A DNA stretch of 64,000 bases from Lachnospiraceae bacterium (GTDB taxonomy: Bacteria; Bacillota; Clostridia; Lachnospirales; Lachnospiraceae): NCBI GenBank assembly GCA_045122835.1, contig JBGVIB010000047.1:38036-102035 (forward strand). Direction: 5' to 3'. The notes beneath the pieces were generated by a model. The model made no database searches, was not told where the DNA came from, and was given only the letters and a program-made list of their open reading frames with translations. The position numbers and the translations under genes are program-made. Numbering within the stretch: the first letter of the stretch is position 1; each line of letters starts with the position of its first letter. This document shows, one piece after another, positions 3,728 through 60,760 of this stretch.

Positions 3728-3858
3728 GTTACTGTTCATACAGGACTTAACATTCATTACTAAGTTCTGAGAAAACGTAGTGCAGGCGGGTAAAAATCCA
3801 TCACCGAAGGTGATTTTCATGGATTTTTACTCGTTACTGGAACGGAGTGAACAGTAAC
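3728..3858 (+). mobile_element. Divergent short copy of the MITE-like repeat family (see copies at 19466, 27215, 42527)
   Basis: Terminal inverted repeat GTTACTGTTCA...TGAACAGTAAC. Shares the core GAAAACGTAGTG..AAAAATCCATCACCGAAGGTGATT..CATGGATTTTT with the other copies. No ORF. Confidence 0.65.
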
Positions 3859-4005: not shown

Positions 4006-5637
4006 ATGAATATGAAAAAAAGCAAAAGATATTTAGGAATGCTTATTGTTTCAATCATGTGTATCTGCTTTGGAATGTTTTGGTGTAAAACCGATGCAGA
4101 AGCAGCGGGAAGGTATACCATACAGGTAAATAAGGGAACCAATGTAGTTACTGTATACGATAGCAATAATAAGCCGTATAAAGCATTTGTTTGTTCCACA
4201 GGCTGGGCAACACCATTAGGCACTTACCAATTAAAGGAAAGATACCGCTGGCATGAACTGGATGGACCTTGTTGGGGACAGTATTGTACTAGAATAACAG
4301 GTAATATATTATTTCATTCTGTATTTTATAATACAATTAATGATCCATCGAATTTGAGTGTAACGGCGTATAATAAGTTGGGAACTACAGCGTCTCATGG
4401 TTGTGTAAGATTGGCAGTAGCAGATGCAAAGTGGATTTATGATAATTGTTCTTTAGGAACCACAGTTAAGATTATCTATGGAACATCCAAAAATGATCCT
4501 TTAGGAAAACCAACCGCACAGAAATTAGATCCTTACACAAAATATAGATGGGATCCGACAGATCCATCACCTGATAACCCTTACAAGAAATACTCACCAA
4601 CACTTAAGATTTCTTCTAAGAAAAAGTTAAAAGTATCTTATGGTGAAAAGGTTAATTATTTAGCTGGTGTTACAGCTAAGAATTACAATGGAAATAAGTA
4701 CTCTAAAAAGGTAAAATACAACGGTACTGTAGATACAAAGACACTTGGAACCTATGATATTGAGTATTATGTGACAAGCTCAAAGGGCATCACTGTGTAT
4801 GAGACAGTAACCTATGAAGTAGTGGATACAGATGCACCTGTTATCTCCGGAGTTAAGAATAGGGTGCTTTCCTATGGTGCTAAGGTTGATCTTGATTCTG
4901 GTGTGAAAGCTACCAGTGTATTTGGTGCAAATTTAAAAAAGAGTCTTGAAATTACTGTAAAGGATCCGGATGGTAAGTCAGTTAAACTTTTAAGTGGTAA
5001 CAAGATTCTCTTAGAGAAAATTGGTGATTACGAAGTAACATATAGCGTAACGGGAACCAATAAGAAAACAAAGACTGTAACGAAGAAGGTTACATCTGAG
5101 GATAGACGAGTAGTAATTACTGCTAATGATACAATTGTAGAATATGGTGCTAAATTTAATCCGTTAAGCATTGTAAGTCTGACTACTTACAAGGGTAAAT
5201 CATTAAAGCCATCTGCTTACTTAAAAGTGTCTGGTAAGGTAAATACTTCTGTTCCAGGTGAATATATTATTACATACACTGCAAATAGCAAAGTCAGCAA
5301 ATTAAGAAGAACTATGAAACAGGTTAAAATAATTGTATTAAACCAGCAAGAACCTGTTATCAATACTTCTGTAGCAGATGTGATTGATATTCCGGTGAAT
5401 TATAATGGAAGCTCACAATATGACTGTAAGCAGGGCGTAACTGCCAAGACTGCAACAGGAGTCACTATTACTTCATATATGCAGGTAAGTGTTCAGAAGA
5501 ATGGAGAAGCGGCTACACAGGGCAACTCTATTCTGGATGTTTCTTCACCGTGCACTTATGTAGTAACTTATACAGTAACAGTACCGGTACAAGGTGGAAA
5601 AACTACTACAAAGACAGTTACAATTAATGTAAAATAA
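4006..5637 (+). CDS. Secreted L,D-transpeptidase (YkuD domain) with C-terminal Ig-like repeat domains
   Basis: Signal peptide MNMKKSKRYLGMLIVSIMCICFG..AEAA. YkuD catalytic motif 'HSVFYN..TASHGCVRL'. Then about 4 repeated about 90-aa beta-rich modules (..YGAKV/YGEKV..). GGAGG RBS before ATG 4006. Confidence 0.85.
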   Translation: MNMKKSKRYLGMLIVSIMCICFGMFWCKTDAEAAGRYTIQVNKGTNVVTVYDSNNKPYKAFVCSTGWATPLGTYQLKERYRWHELDGPCWGQYCTRITGNILFHSVFYNTINDPSNLSVTAYNKLGTTASHGCVRLAVADAKWIYDNCSLGTTVKIIYGTSKNDPLGKPTAQKLDPYTKYRWDPTDPSPDNPYKKYSPTLKISSKKKLKVSYGEKVNYLAGVTAKNYNGNKYSKKVKYNGTVDTKTLGTYDIEYYVTSSKGITVYETVTYEVVDTDAPVISGVKNRVLSYGAKVDLDSGVKATSVFGANLKKSLEITVKDPDGKSVKLLSGNKILLEKIGDYEVTYSVTGTNKKTKTVTKKVTSEDRRVVITANDTIVEYGAKFNPLSIVSLTTYKGKSLKPSAYLKVSGKVNTSVPGEYIITYTANSKVSKLRRTMKQVKIIVLNQQEPVINTSVADVIDIPVNYNGSSQYDCKQGVTAKTATGVTITSYMQVSVQKNGEAATQGNSILDVSSPCTYVVTYTVTVPVQGGKTTTKTVTINVK

Positions 5638-5790: not shown

Positions 5791-7824
5791 ATGATTTATA
5801 TAAACAGCAGATGTAAGGAAATATTACATATGCTTTTAATGGGTGAGGATTATATTCCGCTACAGCGCATTGCGGCAGAGCAGCATGTGTCCAGACGAAG
5901 CATATATTATGACTTGTGTAAAATTAACGAATGGCTGGCAATGTACCAGATTCCGGAATTAGAAGTCATAAGAGGAAAAGGTATTTTCATTCCAAAGGAA
6001 GATAAAAAAGAAATTGAAGCAGTAATCGAGAATAGTTATGAAGAAAACAAGTATATATTTTCGCCGGCGGAGCGTATGAAGATAATAATTTGTTACGTGA
6101 TTTATATGGGCGAGTCGGTATATATTGATCAGCTTTCTGAGTATTGTCAGGTAAGCCGAAATACCATTTTCAATGATTTACGCATGGTGGTAAATCAGTT
6201 GCAGAGCTATAATCTAACTTTGGAATATGAATCTAAAAAAGGATATCGCGTTGCTGGTGATGAGATACGCATTCGGGCATTGTTTTTTGCGTATTTTAGC
6301 GAACTACTTCCTCTGTACAAAAGTGGAGTGATTACATTTATTAATCGGGAAGAATTAAAGAAAAACTTACAAAAGCTGCAGATTATAGAAAAGGAATTAA
6401 ATACAAAATATGTGGAAGGTGTATTAACCTCTTTAGCAGCGTTGTTGCCATTAATGTGCAAGAATGACGGAGTGCTGTATTTTCCAGGACTTCGAAAAGA
6501 AGAAATTTTGCGGACAAAAGAGTTTGGGCTGGTGGAGAGATATTTTTCTGATTTAAATGAAATGGAAAAAATATATCTTTGCATGCATTTGCTAGGCTCC
6601 AGAGTGGCAGTTTTGACAGAACGTTTTTTTGATGACCAGGCAGACCAGTCTGTATATGAAATTGTGAAGGGATTGGTGGCTGAATTTGAACGGATTGCCT
6701 GTGTTGTGTTTGAAGAAAAAGAAGAATTAGAGAGAGGGCTTTTTACACATATCAGTACATCACTATATAGATATCAATATGGTATACAAATAGGAAATCC
6801 AATGTGTGAAGATGTGCGCAGAGAATATCGCTATCTTTTTGATATGACAAAAATTTCCTGCAAATATTTAGAGCAGATTATTGGAATTCCGGTGCCTGAC
6901 ACAGAGGTGGCTTATTTGACATTGCATTTTGGTTCCCATTTAAAAATTGCAAAGCAGGTAAACCGACAATTAAAAATATTAATTGTATGTGCCAATGGGA
7001 TGTCTACCAGTAATATGCTGAGGCGAGAAGTACAGAAATTGTTGCCTTACGCTAACGTAATGGACATTATTCCTGCAGCAGAGGCTCAAAATTTAACAGG
7101 TTTTTGTGACCTTGTAATTTCTTCTGTAAAATTAACCTGCGATGTGCCGGTGATACAGGTGCATCCGATTCTTACAGATTTTGACAGAAAGAATATTTTA
7201 AGTCATAGCCTGGTTGAACATAATCAGGAAACGAGTGAGAGTCTGGCTTTGTTTGATGTGGTGAAAAAATATGTAGACAAAAAAGATTATGCCAGTTTGA
7301 AACTGGATTTGATTAAATTTTTTCAAGGAAGTCCAGAGCCAGTGTCAGCCCCTGTTATGTTGGCTGTTAAAGGACTGTTGTATTATCTGACAAAAGACAG
7401 TATTCGAATATTGCAGGATTCTTTTACCTGGGAGGAATCTGTAAGAGAAGCTGGGAATGTGCTGCTTAAAAAAGGGAGTATTACAGAAAATTATGTAGAG
7501 CAGGTTATCAGCCAGACAAAGCAATATGGAACATATATGTTTGTTGTGCCGGGACTGTTGCTTGCCCATGGCAGACCAGAAGATGGAGCTAATCAACTGG
7601 ATGTTGCTATGACTATTTTTAAGAATCCTGTCTGTTTTCCGGACGAACAGCAGGCATCTGTAATCATTACTTTATCTGTGATTGATCAGGAAAGTCATCT
7701 GAATATATTAAAAGATATTATGGCAATATTTTCTATTCATGAAAGGGTAAATGAATTAGCTGGATTTCATTCAATAGAGGATGTGTACCATTATATAGAG
7801 CAAATCATATATGAAATACAATAA
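5791..7824 (+). CDS. PRD-domain PTS-controlled transcriptional activator (MtlR/LicR/ManR class: HTH-PRD-PRD-EIIB-like-EIIA-like)
   Basis: N-terminal HTH (IPLQRIAAEQHVSRRSIYYDL). Central PRD-like helical regions. EIIB-like 'KILIVCANGMSTSNML'. C-terminal EIIA(type 2)-like 'LLAHGRPEDG'. Start at ATG 5791 with a GAGGAG RBS. Confidence 0.85.
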   Translation: MIYINSRCKEILHMLLMGEDYIPLQRIAAEQHVSRRSIYYDLCKINEWLAMYQIPELEVIRGKGIFIPKEDKKEIEAVIENSYEENKYIFSPAERMKIIICYVIYMGESVYIDQLSEYCQVSRNTIFNDLRMVVNQLQSYNLTLEYESKKGYRVAGDEIRIRALFFAYFSELLPLYKSGVITFINREELKKNLQKLQIIEKELNTKYVEGVLTSLAALLPLMCKNDGVLYFPGLRKEEILRTKEFGLVERYFSDLNEMEKIYLCMHLLGSRVAVLTERFFDDQADQSVYEIVKGLVAEFERIACVVFEEKEELERGLFTHISTSLYRYQYGIQIGNPMCEDVRREYRYLFDMTKISCKYLEQIIGIPVPDTEVAYLTLHFGSHLKIAKQVNRQLKILIVCANGMSTSNMLRREVQKLLPYANVMDIIPAAEAQNLTGFCDLVISSVKLTCDVPVIQVHPILTDFDRKNILSHSLVEHNQETSESLALFDVVKKYVDKKDYASLKLDLIKFFQGSPEPVSAPVMLAVKGLLYYLTKDSIRILQDSFTWEESVREAGNVLLKKGSITENYVEQVISQTKQYGTYMFVVPGLLLAHGRPEDGANQLDVAMTIFKNPVCFPDEQQASVIITLSVIDQESHLNILKDIMAIFSIHERVNELAGFHSIEDVYHYIEQIIYEIQ

Positions 7825-19410: not shown

Positions 19411-19465
19411 ACGCAGCTCCTTTTATAGTATTTGGGTGTCTGAATAGGGAAAACAATGAAAATAT

Positions 19466-19631
19466 GTAACTATTCAGAACAGGACTGTGCTGAACTGCAC
19501 AGTCCGTATGAAAACGTAGTGGCAGCAGGCCAAAATCCATCACCGTAGGTGATTCTGCATGGATTTTGGCCTGTTATTATGAATGTAATTCATAATAACA
19601 TTGGTAACCTATGAGGGAACTGAATAGTTAC
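19466..19631 (+). mobile_element. MITE-like non-coding repeat, 166-bp copy, flanked by a perfect 8-bp direct duplication
   Basis: TIR GTAACTATTCAG...CTGAATAGTTAC. Flanks are GAAAATAT (19458-19465) and GAAAATAT (19632-19639). Nested hairpins. No ORF. Confidence 0.8.
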
Positions 19632-19736
19632 GAAAATATTTATTTTCTACAATTAACAGAAACCGTCTTAATGCATATATATGTAGTAATTTAAAAAACT
19701 ATGAATAGCAATCTAAAGGCAGGAAAGGAAATAAAT

Positions 19737-27214: not shown

Positions 27215-27396
27215 GTAACTATTCAGAACCAGGACAATACAAGCTTGTATGGTGCCAAACTGCACAGTCCGTATGAAAACGTAGTGGTAGCAGGCCAAAA
27301 ACCATCACCGTAGGTGATTCTGCATGGATTTTTGCCTGTTATTATGAATGCAATTCATAATAACATTGGTAACCTATGAGGGTACTGAATAGTTAC
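27215..27396 (+). mobile_element. MITE-like non-coding repeat, 182-bp copy, 11 bp downstream of trpC
   Basis: TIR GTAACTATTCAGAACC...GGTACTGAATAGTTAC. Near-identical to the copy at 42527-42708. No ORF. Confidence 0.8.
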
Positions 27397-27673
27397 TAAA
27401 AATGTAACAAAGAAGAATCATTTATGCAAGAAAAAGAGATAGACAAACTTCGACACTATGCCAGGGTTAGATGGAGGCTGTTCCGGGTGCTTAATCTGTC
27501 ATGACAAATCAAAACATATAAGCACAATGTTGGTAGCTTGTTTGCAGGCTATGTTTCAGGTGAAAAATAGGTTGCATAAAAAAGCGTATTGGTGCTATCA
27601 TAATTTATGATTGATAAATCTTATTTGTCAAAATAGCTGAAAAAATGTAGAAAAGTTTTTGGAGGAAATCAGT

Positions 27674-41120: not shown

Positions 41121-41278
41121 CTTTTATTCAGAGTGGTGGAGATACAAAGGATCTGTGAAGCCACGGCAACCCCTTAAAAGGAAGGTGCCAACCTGAGCGG
41201 CAGCCATATACGATGGCTGTTCGAACAATAAGAGGATTTGTATATAAAAACGAATCCGCTTATTGCGGATTTTTTTTT
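41121..41278 (+). promoter_or_regulatory. SAM-I (S-box) riboswitch with terminator
   Basis: P1 CTTTTATT / AATAAGAG. Conserved 'AGAGTGGTGGAG', 'CACGGCAACC' and 'GGTGCCAA' elements. Terminator GAATCCGC-ttatt-GCGGATT plus T9 (41252-41278). Confidence 0.85.
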
Positions 41279-41348: not shown

Positions 41349-42530
41349 ATGGAAAGATTTTTATTTACATCAGAATCAGTAACTGAAGGACATCCTGATA
41401 AAATCTGTGATGCAGTATCCGATGCAATTTTAGATGCTATGTTAGAGCAGGATCCAATGAGCCGTGTGGCTTGTGAAACACTTACTAACACAGGATTTAT
41501 TATGGTAATGGGTGAGCTTACATCTAATGCACAGGTGGATATTCCAAAGGTAGTGCGTGATACGATTGTAGAAATCGGTTATGACCGTTCTGACTATGGA
41601 TTTGACGGAAATACATGCGCGGTAATGGTAGCTTTGGACAAGCAGTCTCCAGATATTGCCATGGGTGTTGATAAAGCATTAGAAGCAAGAGAAGGTGCCT
41701 TAGAAGATGATTTAGACACTGGTGCAGGCGACCAGGGTATGATGTTTGGATATGCCACAAATGAAACGGAAGAATATATGCCTTACCCAATCGCATTGGC
41801 ACATAAGTTATCAAGACGTTTAACAGAAGTGCGTAAGAATGGTACGTTGCCATATTTAAGACCGGATGGTAAAACACAGGTAACCATAGAGTATGATGAA
41901 AATGGCAAGCCAATTCGTTTAGAAGCAGTTGTATTATCAACTCAGCACAATCCGGAGGCGACACAGGAGCAGATTCATGAAGATATTATGAGAGAAGTAT
42001 TTGATGTGGTGCTTCCAGCAGACCTTCGTGATGAGAATACAAAATATTTCATCAATCCAACCGGTCGTTTTGTTATTGGTGGACCAAACGGTGATAGTGG
42101 ATTGACTGGTCGTAAGATTATCGTAGACACATACGGCGGATGGGCACGTCATGGCGGCGGTGCATTCTCTGGTAAGGACTGCACAAAAGTTGACCGTTCT
42201 GCAGCTTATGCGGCACGTTATGTGGCGAAGAATATTGTTGCAGCAGGTTTGGCAGATAAATGTGAAATTCAGTTATCCTACGCAATCGGTGTGGCACAGC
42301 CAACCTCTATCATGGTAGATACTTTTGGTACAGGAAAGATTTCTGATGAAGAATTAGTAAAGGCAATCCGTGAGAACTTTGACTTACGTCCGGCTGGTAT
42401 TATTAAAATGTTAGATTTGAGAAGACCAATTTACAAGCAGACATCTGCGTATGGACATTTTGGACGCAACGATTTGCACTTACCATGGGAGCAGACTGAT
42501 AAGGCTGATATTTTGAAAAAATATTTGTAA
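41349..42530 (+). CDS. metK: S-adenosylmethionine synthase
   Basis: '[13 protein letters not shown]', 'GAGDQG', 'GGGAFSGKD' and '[10 protein letters not shown]' motifs. The stop codon TAA (42528-42530) lies within the first bases of the MITE copy. Confidence 0.97.
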
Positions 42531-42708
42531 CTATTCAGAACCAGGACAATACAATCTTGTATTGTGCCAAACTGCACAGTCCGTATGAAAACGTAGTGGC
42601 AGCAGGCTAAAATCCATCACCGTAGGTGATTCTGCATGGATTTTGGCCTGTTATTATGATTGCAATTCATAATAACATTGGTAACCTATGAGGGTACTGA
42701 ATAGTTGC
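42527..42708 (+). mobile_element. MITE-like non-coding repeat, 182-bp copy inserted at the metK stop codon, with a perfect 8-bp target-site duplication
   Basis: TIR GTAACTATTCAGAACC...GGTACTGAATAGTTGC. Flanks are AAATATTT (42519-42526) and AAATATTT (42709-42716). The metK terminator lies downstream of the element. Confidence 0.85.
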
Positions 42709-42728
42709 AAATATTTATAAGAGATTTG

Positions 42729-42760
42729 GAATCCGCTGGCGTAGGCTGGCGGATTTTTTT
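42729..42760 (+). terminator. Rho-independent terminator (displaced metK terminator)
   Basis: AATCCGCTGGC-gtag-GCTGGCGGATT followed by T7. Confidence 0.8.
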
Positions 42761-42762
42761 CT

Positions 42763-42797
42763 ATGCGCACGAATTTGAAAGGAAGATGCACTGCGTG
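42763..42797 (+). repeat. 35-bp exact repeat, copy 1 (second copy at 52099-52133)
   Basis: ATGCGCACGAATTTGAAAGGAAGATGCACTGCGTG is identical at both sites. Confidence 0.9.
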
Positions 42798-42887
42798 CTA
42801 AATATACTTTGATAATAAAAATATATTGTCTTTTCCAAACAAATACCGTATACTATGAAAAAAGCGTATGGCAAAGGAGGTCAGGCT

Positions 42888-43322
42888 GTGGATATTTATA
42901 CAACGATAAATGGTGTATTGGTAAAACTGTTTCGGGATGTGATGCATCTAGAAGAGAAAGCAGTAATTACAGGTGAATTTAAGGACATCACCAATAACGA
43001 TATGCATATTATTGAAGTGGTAGGAATTGATGAACCGAAAAATATGTCTACAGTAGCAAAAGAACTATCCGTTACAGTAGGAACACTGACAATTGCCATG
43101 AACAGTCTGGTGAAAAAAGGGTATGTGACGCGAGTAAGAAGTGAGAAGGATCGTCGCGTGGTTCTTTTATCATTGTCCGAGAAAGGAAAAGAAGCTTATA
43201 ATCATCATAAGGAATTTCATCGGAAAATGGTGGAGTCTACCATAGAACGTCTTAGCGGAGAAGAAAAAGAAGTGCTTGTTAAGGCACTACAGAATTTGTA
43301 TCAGTATTTTCAAGAATTATGA
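42888..43322 (+). CDS. MarR-family transcriptional regulator
   Basis: Winged-helix region 'MSTVAKELSVTVGTLTIAMNSLVKKGYVTRVRSEKDRRVVLLSLSEKG'. GTG 42888 preferred (AAAGGAGG RBS 7 nt upstream) over the ORF-track ATG 42855. Confidence 0.85.
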   Translation: MDIYTTINGVLVKLFRDVMHLEEKAVITGEFKDITNNDMHIIEVVGIDEPKNMSTVAKELSVTVGTLTIAMNSLVKKGYVTRVRSEKDRRVVLLSLSEKGKEAYNHHKEFHRKMVESTIERLSGEEKEVLVKALQNLYQYFQEL

Positions 43323-45824: not shown

Positions 45825-47894
45825 ATGCTTATGAAAAGAACATTGAAAGTAAGAATTACAGCTGCAGTTGTGGGTGCGGTCGTTATGGTGTCCACATTGG
45901 TTGGAGGCATTAGTTTTTCAGAATCAAGAAGAATTGCATTTAAGGATTCAAAAGAAATTCTTACATTAATCAATAGCAATCATGCAGCACAGCTAAATGG
46001 AATGATGGCAAAGGTTGAGCAATCAGTAAATACGCTGAGCGATATGACATTGGCAAAGATTAAGGATTTTGACAAGTTTAAAACAGATTCTTCTTATGTG
46101 ACAGAATGTACAGAGGAACTAGAAGAAAGTGTGTTAGGGCTGGCAACCCATACAGATGGAGCAATTACAGCCTACGTTCGGTATAATCCTGAATTTACAG
46201 AACCAACCTCCGGTATTTTCCTTTCAAAATCCGGTGATAGTTATGAATATCTGACACCAACAGATTTTAGTATGTATGACCCGTCAGATACAGAGCATGT
46301 AGGTTGGTATTATATTCCCGTAGAAGCGGGGGAGCCTATCTGGATGGATCCATATCTCAATGAAAATATTAATACTTATATGATCTCTTATGTAATACCG
46401 CTTTACATTGATGGGGAATCGGTAGGTATTGTGGGAATGGATATTGATTTCAATGTGATACAGAGCCAGATTGCAGAGTGGGAGGCATTTGATACGGGAC
46501 ATGCATATCTGACAAATGGTGAAGATAGCATTTTATATCATAAGGATTATGAAGTAGGTGCGAAGACAGAAGAGGTTCTTAAGAAAGATTCTGTTGTTAT
46601 TTCAGACACTTCGTTAGAAGGCGCTGTGCAGGACATGGGGAATTACCAGATAGCGTATACCATACTAGATAATGGCATGAAATTAATCATTTCTGTTCCG
46701 GAAAATGAGCTAAAAGGTGAAATGAATCAGCTTTCTAATAGCATTATGGTATCTGTTCTTGCTGGTTTATTCGTTTCTTTCCTGTATGCATTATTTGTAA
46801 GTAACAATATTTCTAAGCCAATTAAGCTTTTGACTAAGATTATTAAAAAGACAGCTGATTTGGATTTAGCACCAAATCAAGGTAGTCAGCAATTGATGAA
46901 TCGCACGGATGAAACTGGTGATATGGCAAATGCAATTCACCAGATGCGAAACAAATTGAGGGAAATGACGAGAAATATTGATGCTTCCTGTGAATCATTA
47001 TATGAAAATATTTCATCCCTGCAACAGACATCAGAAGCTATTGACAGTATTGCAGAGTCCAATTCTGCTCTCACACAGGAATTGGCAGCTGGTATGCAGG
47101 AATCTACAGATGCTACAGTTTCCATGGAGGAGAGTATCGCAGATGTGAATGAAAATGCAGTTTCCATTGAGAACCTTGCAAAAGAGGGAAGTAATTTATC
47201 AAAAGAAATTATGAAGCGGGCAGTGGAGCTTGGTGTGACAACCAAAGATGCATCGGATAAGACAAAAGAAATGTACACTAACGTGAAGCAGGATACAGAA
47301 CTTGCCTTACAGAAATCAAAGGCAGTGCAGAAGATTGGTGAACTTGCAGAAGCCATTTCTGAAATTTCTACCCAGACAGGTCTTCTTGCCTTAAATGCTT
47401 CTATTGAAGCGGCAAGGGCCGGTGAGGCGGGGAAAGGATTTGCAGTAGTGGCAACAGAGATTACCAATTTATCAAACCAGACAGCAGAGACAGTAGCAAA
47501 TATCAGTGATATTGTAATGGAAGTAAATGATGCAGTGGCTGAAATGGCAAAATGTTTAGATATTTCCATGGAATTTATGGGTAAATCCGTCCTGTCTGAT
47601 TATGAGAATTTTGGCAATGTAAGTGAACAGTACAAACGGGATGCGACTGTGATTGAAAATAGTATGAACAATATAGATAGTGCAATTGTAACATTGACAG
47701 AGCATATTATGCAGATCAAGACATCCGTGGAAGGCATTAGCAAAACAGCTGGTGAGTCTAGCATCAGTATCAATGAAATTGCGGAAAGCACATCTCAAAT
47801 GGCAGAAAAGACAAGCAACAATGCAGATATGGTAAATGACAGCATGGAGAAGATTGATTTGCTAAAAGATGTTGTGGGACAGTTTAAGATGTAG
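45825..47894 (+). CDS. Methyl-accepting chemotaxis protein (double-Cache sensor, HAMP, MCP signalling domain)
   Basis: TM-periplasmic(dCache-like 'YYIPVEAGEPIWMDPY')-TM-HAMP layout. '[24 protein letters not shown]'. Confidence 0.9.
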   Translation: MLMKRTLKVRITAAVVGAVVMVSTLVGGISFSESRRIAFKDSKEILTLINSNHAAQLNGMMAKVEQSVNTLSDMTLAKIKDFDKFKTDSSYVTECTEELEESVLGLATHTDGAITAYVRYNPEFTEPTSGIFLSKSGDSYEYLTPTDFSMYDPSDTEHVGWYYIPVEAGEPIWMDPYLNENINTYMISYVIPLYIDGESVGIVGMDIDFNVIQSQIAEWEAFDTGHAYLTNGEDSILYHKDYEVGAKTEEVLKKDSVVISDTSLEGAVQDMGNYQIAYTILDNGMKLIISVPENELKGEMNQLSNSIMVSVLAGLFVSFLYALFVSNNISKPIKLLTKIIKKTADLDLAPNQGSQQLMNRTDETGDMANAIHQMRNKLREMTRNIDASCESLYENISSLQQTSEAIDSIAESNSALTQELAAGMQESTDATVSMEESIADVNENAVSIENLAKEGSNLSKEIMKRAVELGVTTKDASDKTKEMYTNVKQDTELALQKSKAVQKIGELAEAISEISTQTGLLALNASIEAARAGEAGKGFAVVATEITNLSNQTAETVANISDIVMEVNDAVAEMAKCLDISMEFMGKSVLSDYENFGNVSEQYKRDATVIENSMNNIDSAIVTLTEHIMQIKTSVEGISKTAGESSISINEIAESTSQMAEKTSNNADMVNDSMEKIDLLKDVVGQFKM

Positions 47895-47909
47895 CAGGGT
47901 AATTATTTA

Positions 47910-47934
47910 GAATCACCTACGGTGATGGATTTTA
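47910..47934 (-). repeat. Solo 25-nt fragment of the MITE core hairpin, inverted orientation
   Basis: GAATCACCTACGGTGATGGATTTT is the reverse complement of AAAATCCATCACCGTAGGTGATTC found in all full copies. Confidence 0.7.
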
Positions 47935-47981
47935 GATTTCTAAAATTGTGTTGTCCAGTTGTCCATAAGAAGACATAGAAA

Positions 47982-57986: not shown

Positions 57987-60548
57987 ATGAAGCATCCGTA
58001 TTTCTGGAAAACAACAGTAGTGTTTTTGCAGATTCTGTGTGTTCTTGGCATATTTGGCATTTGCTATGCCGGATATTACAAGGCTGGAAGTAGCATTTTT
58101 AATATGGCACAGATAGATGGAGGCAAGTACGAAAATACGGAATATTATCTACAGGAAGTAAATAGTCAGTTTGCATTATTGCACGAGAGGATTCGCCAAG
58201 AAGAAATGTTCCAAAAGGATGAAAGTGGAAGAATGACTTCTGTGGTTAATATGAATGATTATGGATATTACAATATTAAATATACCGTAGAAACACTTTT
58301 AAATGCAGAGGAAAACTGGTCTGATTATGATATCAGCATTTATTTTGACCAGGATGGTGAGATACCGGATGAAGAAAATATTATGCTTCCGGCAGAGGCA
58401 ATGCGTATCCTGTTGAAGGAAAATGCATCCGGATTAAGTCAGGAGTATCAAAAAGAGGTTACAGAAGCGGCCAGGAATGAAGGGGATACCTATAATTGGA
58501 TCTTATATCACAACGGACAAGCTGTTGGAGGTATGACCGAGGAACAAGCGGCTGAAAGATATGAGGATCCAGTCGTTTTAAGCTGGAATTTTTCAGTGTT
58601 AAATGAAAAAAAATCCGGTTTACAGACTCAGGAGGGGAAAAGCTTGTTAGAATATTGTGGAAATATTCCGATTTATGAGTATTACAGTGTTTTTTCCACA
58701 CTTTCCTGCATGTTAGAAGAAGTGAAGAACATGTATGATGAATACCAGCAACGGCTTTACCAGTCACCATCTTCTATTTATGTTATGGTTGCAGGAGCGA
58801 ACGATGAATGTTTGTATAACAGTGGATTGGGAGAATTTTCCCAAGAATTATATACTGCCGGTGATAAGTGGTTAAAGACAGTAAAAGGCGGGAAGAACAA
58901 TTATATTTATTTTAACAGCAAGAATTTCCGGATGGAAACCAGTCTTAATGTGGATACCAATCAGTTGTATAGCTGGTATATGAGTCTGGGAGATATTTTT
59001 GATCATGACTTTGCAGCAGCAATTACCATTCCGGCAGGGGACCTTTCGAATTATCAGGTCCAGGATTCGCTTCGTGAAGGAAAGGTTCTTTATGATCAGA
59101 TACGGCCTCAGATGAAATATTATGTAAGTGTTGTGGTTGGTTGTCTCATAGGAGCGATTATTCTTCTGATTGCCTTTACCGGCATGTGCGGGCGTTCTAA
59201 GGAAGAAGGAATTACACTAATTGGATTTGATAAAATTCCTACAGAAATTGCTGCAGTTATATTGGGTGTGCTGGGCGTATGTTGTGTATGGGCTGTGGCC
59301 GGGGCAATCGAGGAGTCCCTTTACCATATGGGTAATCTTTTTTGGATTGGTGTGGATATGCTTATGATTGTTTCTGCGCATCTATTATTCTTGTATGGCT
59401 ATGGTTCTCTAGTTAGAAGAATGAAAGCCGGTGTATTGTGGAAAAACAGCATATTCAGAATGCTATGTTCAGGGGCAGCATTTTGTGTATCCCATATTCA
59501 TGAGGCAGTATCAACGGTAGTAGGCTATGCGGCATTTGTACTATTTAATATTGCTATGAGTGTAGAGGCATTTGGAGACGGTTATTTCTATGCATTTGTG
59601 TGTATGGTAATTGTAGATGTGATAGTGGGAGGTTGCCTGTTATATGAAGCCTATATCCGCCGCAACATACAAAAAACGGTAAAACGTATATCGGATGGAG
59701 ATATTACGTATCAGATGGATAGTTCCTATATACAGGGAAGTTACCGCAAATTAGTGGATAATCTGAATCATATTGGCGAAGGTCTGCAGAATGCAGTGGA
59801 TGCCAATATGAAGAGTGAACGTTTAAAAACAGATTTGATTACAAATGTATCTCACGATATCAAGACACCACTTACGTCTATTATTAATTACATTGGTCTG
59901 ATTAAGAGAGAAGATGTGGAGAATGAACGTATTAAAGAATATGTAAATGTTTTAGACCAGAAGGCTCAACGTTTGAAATCCTTGACAGAAGATTTGGTGG
60001 AGGTATCGAGAATTACATCAGGAAACATTGTACTTCAGATGATGCCATTAGATTTTGTAGAAATTGTTCAGCAGACAGTGGCAGAATTTGATGAAAAATT
60101 TGAAGGACGCAACTTACAGTTGGTGATGAATTTCTCCACGGAAAACATTGCTGTGCATGCGGACGGCAGACGTTTGTATCGTGTTATTGAAAATTTGTTT
60201 AGCAATGTTGCGAAATATGCGATGCCGGGAACAAGGGTGTATGTAGATATTTTCTTAGAAAATGGAGGAAGTAAAGCCGTATTGTCTGTAAAGAATATAT
60301 CGGAAAATCCATTGAATATTCAGGCAACAGAGCTTACAGAGCGATTTATTCGTGGTGATGTGTCAAGAAGTACAGAAGGAAGTGGTCTGGGACTTTCCAT
60401 TGCAAAAAGCCTGACAGAAGCCCAAGGCGGGACGTTTGAGATATATTTAGATGGAGATCTGTTCCGGTCAACTATTACTTTTCCGCATATTCGCCGTGAA
60501 TTTGCAAAAACAGAAGAGAGCGAGCAGAAAGATGAAGAAAATCAGTAA
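57987..60548 (+). CDS. Sensor histidine kinase with large extracytoplasmic domain and multi-TM region
   Basis: H-box 'ITNVSHDIKTPLTSI', N-box 'NLFSNVAKYA' and G-box 'GSGLGLSIAK'. Confidence 0.9.
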   Translation: MKHPYFWKTTVVFLQILCVLGIFGICYAGYYKAGSSIFNMAQIDGGKYENTEYYLQEVNSQFALLHERIRQEEMFQKDESGRMTSVVNMNDYGYYNIKYTVETLLNAEENWSDYDISIYFDQDGEIPDEENIMLPAEAMRILLKENASGLSQEYQKEVTEAARNEGDTYNWILYHNGQAVGGMTEEQAAERYEDPVVLSWNFSVLNEKKSGLQTQEGKSLLEYCGNIPIYEYYSVFSTLSCMLEEVKNMYDEYQQRLYQSPSSIYVMVAGANDECLYNSGLGEFSQELYTAGDKWLKTVKGGKNNYIYFNSKNFRMETSLNVDTNQLYSWYMSLGDIFDHDFAAAITIPAGDLSNYQVQDSLREGKVLYDQIRPQMKYYVSVVVGCLIGAIILLIAFTGMCGRSKEEGITLIGFDKIPTEIAAVILGVLGVCCVWAVAGAIEESLYHMGNLFWIGVDMLMIVSAHLLFLYGYGSLVRRMKAGVLWKNSIFRMLCSGAAFCVSHIHEAVSTVVGYAAFVLFNIAMSVEAFGDGYFYAFVCMVIVDVIVGGCLLYEAYIRRNIQKTVKRISDGDITYQMDSSYIQGSYRKLVDNLNHIGEGLQNAVDANMKSERLKTDLITNVSHDIKTPLTSIINYIGLIKREDVENERIKEYVNVLDQKAQRLKSLTEDLVEVSRITSGNIVLQMMPLDFVEIVQQTVAEFDEKFEGRNLQLVMNFSTENIAVHADGRRLYRVIENLFSNVAKYAMPGTRVYVDIFLENGGSKAVLSVKNISENPLNIQATELTERFIRGDVSRSTEGSGLGLSIAKSLTEAQGGTFEIYLDGDLFRSTITFPHIRREFAKTEESEQKDEENQ

Positions 60549-60760
60549 CTATGAGGGGCTGCATAGTTACAAACCAAAAAAATATGGATTGTGCATTATG
60601 CTGATATAAAGTCAAAAATTTGCTTTTTTGTACAGGAAGGTGTATAATACACAAAGAGAGAATGAGAAACGAATTGTTAAAATTGTTTCTCATTCTTGCG
60701 TGTAGGACTGCTATAATGGGCAGTGAGCGTATTTGCCGGAAGATTGTGCAAGGAGGCTAT

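Follow-up and report, generated by a model that had tools for sequence, protein, structure and literature searches.

How can a mobile repeat enter the last codons of an essential gene and leave the encoded protein as it was? This question is raised by the 3' end of metK, the gene for S-adenosylmethionine (SAM) synthetase, in a 64,000-nucleotide stretch of DNA from a Lachnospiraceae bacterium (assembly GCA_045122835.1, contig JBGVIB010000047.1, positions 38,036 to 102,035 of the forward strand), which is referred to here as the window. A 182-nt repeat lies across the end of this gene. The metK site was observed to be polymorphic in related genomes, where it occurs as an empty, a full and a 149-bp-deleted allele, and the full insertion is synonymous as the final leucine codon changes from TTA to TTG and the stop codon TAA is resupplied by the GTAA with which the repeat begins. 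We consider it very probable that the repeat is a miniature inverted-repeat transposable element (MITE) of an undescribed family which, mobilised in trans, inserted into AAATATTT across the last codons of metK in one lineage of an uncultured gut or rumen Lachnospiraceae species.

The insertion junction at the 3' end of metK

The Pfam domains of metK were precomputed on an identical protein, and hundreds of MetK homologues were found at 83-99% identity. In the window, metK ends with AAA AAA TAT TTG TAA, which reads KKYL-stop, the first four bases of the element supplying the G of its last sense codon TTG (42525-42527) and the whole of its stop codon TAA (42528-42530). A copy of AAATATTT is located on either side of the element as a target site duplication (TSD), and as the repeat is not extendable on either flank the duplication is exactly 8 bp. 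Removal of the element together with one repeat in silico gives AAA AAA TAT TTA TAA GAG. The right TSD copy is followed by ATAAGAG and then by a canonical intrinsic terminator. The coordinates of these and all other features of the window are listed in Table 1.

Fifty-eight of the 60 closest MetK proteins were observed to end with LKKYL, and KKYL-stop is therefore the native C-terminus. A preliminary description of the window had proposed that the insertion is silent at the protein level, and this is confirmed by the synonymous change of TTA to TTG and by the native KKYL end; the sequences and coordinates that it gave for the metK junction were all correct on recheck.

Allelic states of the metK site in related genomes

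MetK proteins with 96-99% identity were traced to their contigs (loci outside the window are denoted by L numbers) and three allelic states were compared. The gene order murA-metK-marR-DUF885 is common to the window and all the traced loci. The filled allele, with both TSD copies and a metK of 100% nucleotide identity, was found in the window and in L001, which spans the whole element, as well as in L002 and L003, which break inside the element. A look-up with the exact MetK protein returned filled or truncated contigs only, with no empty site among identical proteins.

The empty allele was found in L005 (metK 96.5% nucleotide identity; MetK 98% amino acid identity), where the junction reads ...TTGAAAAAATATTTATAAGAGATAG... 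/ ...TTGAAAAAATATTTATAAGAGATAGAAAAATCCGCTGGC..., and in L007 and L081 (metK 88.8% nucleotide identity; MetK 96% amino acid identity), where it reads ...AAATATTTATAA... / ...AAGAAATATTTATAA.... These alleles carry a single AAATATTT and have the terminator hairpin 8-14 nt past the stop codon. The related metagenome strains with an empty site thus show AAATATTTATAA followed directly by the terminator, as predicted, and the junction that the preliminary description had reconstructed for the empty site was recovered in L005, L007 and L081. Related element-free genomes were also searched for a metK end that would be incompatible with this reconstruction, and the ends found agreed with it.

The internally deleted allele was observed in L004 and L080, which come from two samples and have metK genes of 99.7% and 99.1% nucleotide identity. 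It reads ...AAAAAATAT, AACATTGGTAACCTATGAGGGTACTGAATAGTTGC, AAATATTTATAAGAG... across its junctions, where 149 nt corresponding to window positions 42525-42673 are missing and the last 35 nt of the element are left (L004 4175-4211). Since the right TSD is retained together with the GTTGC end specific to the metK copy, this allele derives from the same insertion. Here metK reads into the element and the end of the protein changes from KKYL to KKYNIGNL (397 aa; proteins P0002 and P0003). At least two independent samples contain the deleted allele, and nine sequences belong to cluster P0003.

The filled state is confined to the lineage with an identical metK (window, L001-L003) and the empty state is found in progressively more distant relatives, so that gain in the lineage of the window is the parsimonious polarity. 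In L005, a different insertion of about 430 bp (~4200-4620) was noticed, with the metK terminator on one side and the marR promoter on the other. It holds a long inverted repeat (...GGAGAGGAGGCGCAGATTGGCAACAGAGAC... / ...GTCTCTGTTGCCAATCTGCGACTCCTCTCC...) and is unrelated to the metK MITE.

Table 1. Features of the window discussed in the text (TIR, terminal inverted repeat; ORF, open reading frame; IS, insertion sequence)
Feature	Position	Strand	Evidence or remark
SAM (S-box) riboswitch aptamer, metK leader	41121..41234	+	Rfam RF00162, 68.6 bits, E 6.6e-14
Terminator-like hairpin of the metK-leader riboswitch	41252-41272		Terminator-like site scan
metK (S-adenosylmethionine synthetase, 393 aa)	41349..42530	+	ORF list; Pfam PF00438/PF02772/PF02773; 99-83% identical homologues
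Left TSD copy, AAATATTT	42519..42526	.	Inside metK codons 390-393; single copy in empty sites of L005, L007, L081
182-nt non-coding MITE, IS66-family-derived as judged from its ends	42527..42708	+	Termini identical over 12-17 nt to full-length IS66-family ISs
Left TIR, GTAACTATTCAGAACC	42527-42542
Internal hairpins of the 182-nt MITE	42546-42565, 42603-42650, 42649-42677
Right TIR, GGTACTGAATAGTTGC	42693-42708
Right TSD copy, AAATATTT	42709..42716	.	Sequence
Former metK end TTA TAA, displaced, now untranslated	42715..42720	+	Identical to functional TTA TAA of empty alleles L005, L007, L081
Original metK intrinsic terminator (predicted): 13-bp stem, 4-nt loop, T-run	42728..42764	+	Terminator scan; orthologous hairpin in L005, L007, L081
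MarR-family regulator gene, syntenic neighbour outside the element	42855..43322	+	Own promoter-like site 42826-42854
Second 182-nt copy, 96% identical	27215..27396	+	11 nt past trpC stop; right flank mismatched in the window
Third copy, 166-nt variant without the first internal hairpin	19466..19631	+	Perfect non-palindromic TSD GAAAATAT at 19458-19465 and 19632-19639
Diverged 131-nt relative	3728..3858	+	Perfect 11-nt termini GTTACTGTTCA / TGAACAGTAAC; central hairpin module 84% over 58 nt
Degenerate remnant	47899..47935	+	TIR-like GTAATTATTTAGAATC plus 27 nt identical to reverse complement of central hairpin; 4 nt past stop of ORF 45825..47894

Structure of the element and its other copies

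The element begins with GTAAC and ends with GTTGC in the metK copy, whereas the other copies end with GTTAC. Its TIRs are 16 nt long and contain two mismatches in the metK copy and one in the other copies (AGAACC versus AGTACC). The ORFs that cross the element are all spurious and at most 48 aa long, and promoter-like sites within it were discarded as they occur at or below the shuffle expectation. A BLAST search of the element against plasmid and phage collections gave chance-level fragments only. The window contains two occurrences of the 21-nt left terminus, for which 0.00 are expected, while the 16-nt TIR with up to three mismatches has 11 matches against 1.05 expected, six of which are both ends of three copies. 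The repeat is therefore not a chance product.

We noticed that AAATATTT is palindromic, being identical to its own reverse complement, a caveat overlooked by the preliminary description. Taken together as an inverted repeat, the TSD and TIR extend over 24 nt with 92% complementarity. A reading of AAATATTT as an extension of the TIR is ruled out by the empty sites, where it is present in single copy, and by the non-palindromic 8-bp repeats at other copies.

Three near-full copies, a diverged relative and remnants are present in the 64-kb window, and further copies were found outside it in fecal_MAG_249 (L012, L016). Perfect 8-bp TSDs (8/8) were observed at three independent sites: metK (copy at 42527; AAATATTT / AAATATTT), the window copy at 19466 (GAAAATAT / GAAAATAT) and the trpC copy as it occurs in L073 and L074, which is flanked by GAAAGAAT / GAAAGAAT and then followed by trpF. 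Less complete duplications flank the copy in L012 (ATCAAATT / ACCAAATT, 7/8) and a 248-nt sister MITE in L010, a goat-rumen metagenome-assembled genome (MAG) (ATTTTATG / ACTTTATC, 6/8). The sister MITE has the first 21 nt and the right terminus of the 182-nt family, with an unrelated interior. The part that is conserved across the subfamilies is thus the termini, which is the signature of a transposase substrate and not of an RNA gene.

The trpC copy of the window was considered as an argument against an 8-bp TSD, and this is ruled out by the perfect GAAAGAAT duplication in other assemblies. To the right of 27215-27396 the window continues with TAAAAATG... and a HIT-like ORF at 27659, in conflict with independent assemblies, where the trpC MITE is followed by the TSD GAAAGAAT and trpF (L073, L074) or by era and recO (L072). 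In addition, the trp operon of the window ends at trpC and no trpF, trpB or trpA is found downstream. These flanks suggest that the missing TSD is probably explained by a chimeric or rearranged right flank, and that the window at 27215-27420 probably represents an assembly chimera or a real MITE-mediated rearrangement.

The diverged relative at 3728-3858 is located in a divergent intergenic region and contains the common hairpin module (AAAATCCATCACCG.AGGTGATT..CATGGATTTT), with no clear TSD. A scan of the genome collection for the left 21-mer gave three true matches. The matches in Calothrix (four) and in the metagenome (all three) were rejected as chance matches inside a conserved coding gene; the exact 21-nt match in a conserved gene of Calothrix/Dulcicalothrix (L011, L013-L015 and L017-L019) is unrelated to the element, and matches of a 21-mer across 600 Gb require context.

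Relationship to IS66-family insertion sequences

A scan of viral contigs for the 16-nt TIR gave about 40 matches, which were mostly due to chance; three of these had an inverted second TIR 1.7-1.8 kb away. These three were found to be complete insertion sequences (ISs). Their ORF contains an N-terminal DUF6444 domain (PF20042) together with DDE_Tnp_IS66 (PF03050), with E values of 6.9e-40 and 2.5e-39. The full-length ISs (1.6-1.8 kb) start and end with GTAACTATTCAG... and are identical to the left end of the MITE over 16 nt. Further full-length examples were found in more distant relatives and through the protein database (gut metagenomes, Lachnospiraceae MAGs), and the transposase clade includes database proteins named "IS66 family transposase [Lachnospiraceae bacterium]".

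The ISs of L054 (5650-7362, 1713 bp; same locus as L047) and L041 (645-2440, 1796 bp) have the ends GTAACTATTCAG... and are flanked by the perfect 8-bp TSDs AGAAAATC and CTATGGCA respectively. Those of L064 (1676 bp; ends GTAACTATTCAG / GTAACTGTTCAG), L065 (1613 bp; ends GTAACTATTCAG / GTAACTATTCAC) and L086 (1826 bp; ends GTAACTGTTCAGAACCCC) have the perfect 8-bp TSDs AAATCCCC, CATTTAAT and AAAAAGAT, and the IS of L090 (1714 bp; ends GTAACTATTCAGAACCC, with 17-nt TIRs) encodes an intact 479-aa transposase and has flanks that do not match. The termini that these six have in common with the MITE comprise the first 12-17 nt.

The hallmarks of IS66 are inverted repeats that start with GTAAGCG and 8-bp direct repeats (PMC11946415, citing TnCentral). 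As in the single-ORF type of this family, the metK element has 5'-GTAA ends, an 8-bp target duplication and the first 12-17 nt (GTAACTATTCAG...) of full-length elements. It differs from them in being 182 nt long and non-coding, with a match that is limited to the terminal ~16 nt and an unrelated interior, and it starts with GTAACTA in place of the canonical GTAAGCG. Canonical IS66 also has three ORFs (tnpA, tnpB and tnpC) whereas the relatives found here have one, a subgroup that we take to be the ISBst12-like group (ISfinder). The element had been called a MITE in the preliminary description, and this call is supported by several copies with 8-bp TSDs, by the absence of coding capacity and by TIRs common to full-length IS66-family elements. 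By the evidence of its termini, the element is a MITE derived from single-ORF IS66-family elements, and elements of this kind presumably mobilised it.

Two of the full-length copies are probably defective, judging from their reading frames. In the IS of L054 the N-terminal region is interrupted by an in-frame TAA (~6045-6050), and in that of L041 a frameshift separates the DUF6444 and DDE parts (983-1261 / 1149-2420). Intact transposase versions of 479-491 aa are present in L090 and L082-L089. The transposase stop codon of these ISs was observed to lie within the right TIR or a few nucleotides from it.

Proposed course of the insertion

We propose that the MITE was built on the ends of single-ORF IS66-family ISs and that a trans-acting DDE transposase of this family would have recognised the GTAACTATTCAG termini and made cuts with an 8-bp stagger. 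Mobilisation in trans is suggested because the MITE encodes nothing itself, and the polymorphism of the insertion between strains is indirect evidence of it. The duplication ends with TT at codon positions 1-2 of the final leucine, and the GTAA of the element gives the junction TTG TAA. The rebuilding of the wobble base and stop codon follows from the sequence of the IS66 end and the reading frame of the target and is not a new mechanism. The insertion may have survived because it was neutral for an essential gene; damaging insertions would be lost, and selection would thus explain why the one seen is neutral. As a consequence of the insertion, the original terminator would be reached by the transcript only after a further 190 nt of strong secondary structure, and the processing or stability of the mRNA may change. 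The 149-bp-deleted allele in turn rewrites the C-terminus of MetK.

A number of observations weigh against this explanation. No IS66-family transposase was found in the 64-kb window by tblastn with an intact IS66-type query, and no full-length IS was found that has more than 16-17 terminal nucleotides in common with the MITE, the immediate parent thus not being among those recovered. Two copies, the window's own trpC copy and that of L016, are without a matching TSD. Furthermore, the central hairpin (42603-42650) is followed by TTATTATGATT and may act as a weak terminator, which a simple scan could miss because of its 18-nt loop.

Transcription through the element and alternative explanations

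The old terminator was said in the preliminary description to lie 3' of the element, and its stem (42728-42757) and T-run were indeed located there. The stem has 6 GC pairs among 13 bp and is followed by TTTTTTT, and termination at this site is predicted only. With the element in place the terminator starts 198 nt past the stop codon, against ~8-14 nt in the empty alleles, and the displacement by the insertion is 190 nt. In the predicted fold of the new metK 3' end, the terminator hairpin is intact while the palindromic TSD and the TIRs form a 20-bp outer helix that encloses codons 391-393 and the stop codon. Within the element, a consensus terminator scan of the + strand detected no terminator-like site. 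Between trpC and trpF, inside the trp operon (L073, L074), a further copy has the same orientation, and this favours read-through since strong termination at this position would have a polar effect on trpF and on the genes downstream of it. It is therefore plausible, with moderate support from these predictions, that the whole element is transcribed as metK 3' untranslated region (UTR) up to the old terminator.

The insertion might also be real and yet bring its own transcription stop. In that case transcription of metK would stop for the most part at the central hairpin (42603-42650, then UUAUUAUGAUU), which would make the old terminator superfluous and limit the share of the element within the 3' UTR to about two thirds. 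The central hairpin is long and stable and precedes a U-rich stretch, and the hairpin module is the part that is conserved between diverged subfamilies (3728-3858 and the 182-nt family); terminator-like MITEs such as SPRITE are also known (review PMC10969869). However, the U-tract is broken after two U, and both the empty terminator scan and the trpC-trpF copy described above argue against an efficient stop. We consider an internal stop unlikely, although it is the best supported of the alternatives.

The remaining alternatives concern the insertion itself. Were the element ancestral at metK, the empty sites would be the product of precise excision, in which the two 8-bp repeats recombined. 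Deletions inside the element mediated by the host are indeed found, as the 149-bp allele of L004 and L080 demonstrates, but this sole observed deletion is imprecise. At least two independent and perfectly precise excisions (L005; L007/L081) would be needed, and these in the more distant lineages (96.5% and 88.8% nucleotide identity), whereas all the filled or deletion-derived alleles are at least 99.1% identical to the window. Ancestry with excision is very improbable on these grounds.

That the repeat is not a transposon but a gene for a structured RNA, or resembles REP/BOX repeats and was spread by recombination, with flanking repeats that arose by coincidence, appears even less probable. 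The predicted structure of the element is very strong (-73.7 kcal/mol, z = -7.5) and its central hairpin is conserved, as would suit such an origin. Against this, three sites carry perfect 8-bp duplications whose sequences are unrelated, the 248-nt sister element of L010 has only the termini in common, the same termini bound transposase-encoding IS66-family elements, and no Rfam family matched over the element at the gathering threshold or even at E <= 1.

An assembly artefact, with the repeat mis-joined to the metK 3' end in a metagenome-assembled contig, is the least credible alternative: many contigs do break inside the repeat and the window is probably chimeric or rearranged at 27215-27396 (its right flank compared with L073, L074 and L072), but the gene order on either side of the metK copy (murA-metK-marR-DUF885) agrees with that of relatives and its flanks bear a matching TSD, the independent sample L001 spans the whole element with both flanks, and the deletion allele has the same right junction in two further samples.

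Comparison with known repeats

The metK insertion resembles the Correia elements of Neisseria and the ERIC elements of Yersinia in being a short TIR-bounded repeat between a stop codon and a terminator, for which co-transcription and a long TIR helix are predicted here. It has no sequence relationship to them and differs in its parent IS family and TSD, as Correia duplicates TA and the metK element 8 bp. The Correia helix is cut by RNase III, and ERIC unmasks an RNase E site (review PMC10969869). By analogy, we speculate that the 20-bp helix around the metK stop codon may be open to cleavage by RNase III or to other processing.

Rickettsia palindromic elements and other intragenic MITEs are likewise tolerated inside coding genes, where frame and function survive (PMC10969869). 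The Rickettsia elements add an in-frame peptide whereas the full metK element adds none, its first four bases being a wobble base and a stop codon, and residues encoded by the element (NIGNL) appear solely in the deletion derivative (L004, L080). RUP, BOX and SPRITE of Streptococcus pneumoniae are similarly small, dispersed and strongly structured Firmicute repeats, often clustered and near gene ends, but they have no sequence similarity to the metK element. RUP derives from IS630-Spn1 and has a TA target, while BOX and SPRITE, unlike the metK element, are not simple TIR/TSD elements.

The literature already describes MITEs in 3' UTRs, MITEs tolerated in genes and MITE-driven assembly breaks and rearrangements (PMC10969869). 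Our literature searches gave no description of the family of the metK element or of an IS66-derived MITE in Lachnospiraceae. The metK element is thus an undescribed MITE family of a known type and its insertion an event of an ordinary kind, by which current understanding is not overturned. The locus provides a natural insertion polymorphism with three allele states at one site and shows the harmless entry of a transposon into an essential gene. It also connects an undescribed MITE family of uncultured Lachnospiraceae with the single-ORF IS66-family elements that have GTAACTATTCAG ends and form a large clade. As a natural allelic series, the three states could reveal how a structured insertion in the 3' UTR affects a gene under riboswitch control. 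As a practical warning, the repeat breaks or mis-joins metagenome assemblies, probably including the window at 27215-27396.

A more far-reaching proposal is that GTAA-ended IS66-type MITEs preferentially land, or are retained, between stop codon and terminator as mobile 3'-UTR modules. With their TAA and a 20-bp stop-enclosing helix they would retune mRNA stability or translation termination, and the co-existence of alleles would reflect selection on expression and not drift. If so, the output of the essential, SAM-riboswitch-controlled metK would be retuned. We regard this proposal as doubtful. Hints in its direction are a GTAAC...GTTAC remnant that gives the TAA of ORF 57987..60548, and copies or remnants located 4 and 11 nt past stop codons.

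This remnant is a 26-nt mini-palindrome, GTAACTATGAGGGGCTGCATAGTTAC, at 60545-60570 and is similar to the 28 nt at the right end of the MITE. The stop codon (60546-60548) of the 853-aa ORF is provided by its GTAAC, so that the window contains two stop codons formed by a GTAA terminus. Similar solo right-end remnants were also observed in L030 and in L005 at 5169-5191, just after marR, where they are flanked by TTAAGAGGCGG repeats.

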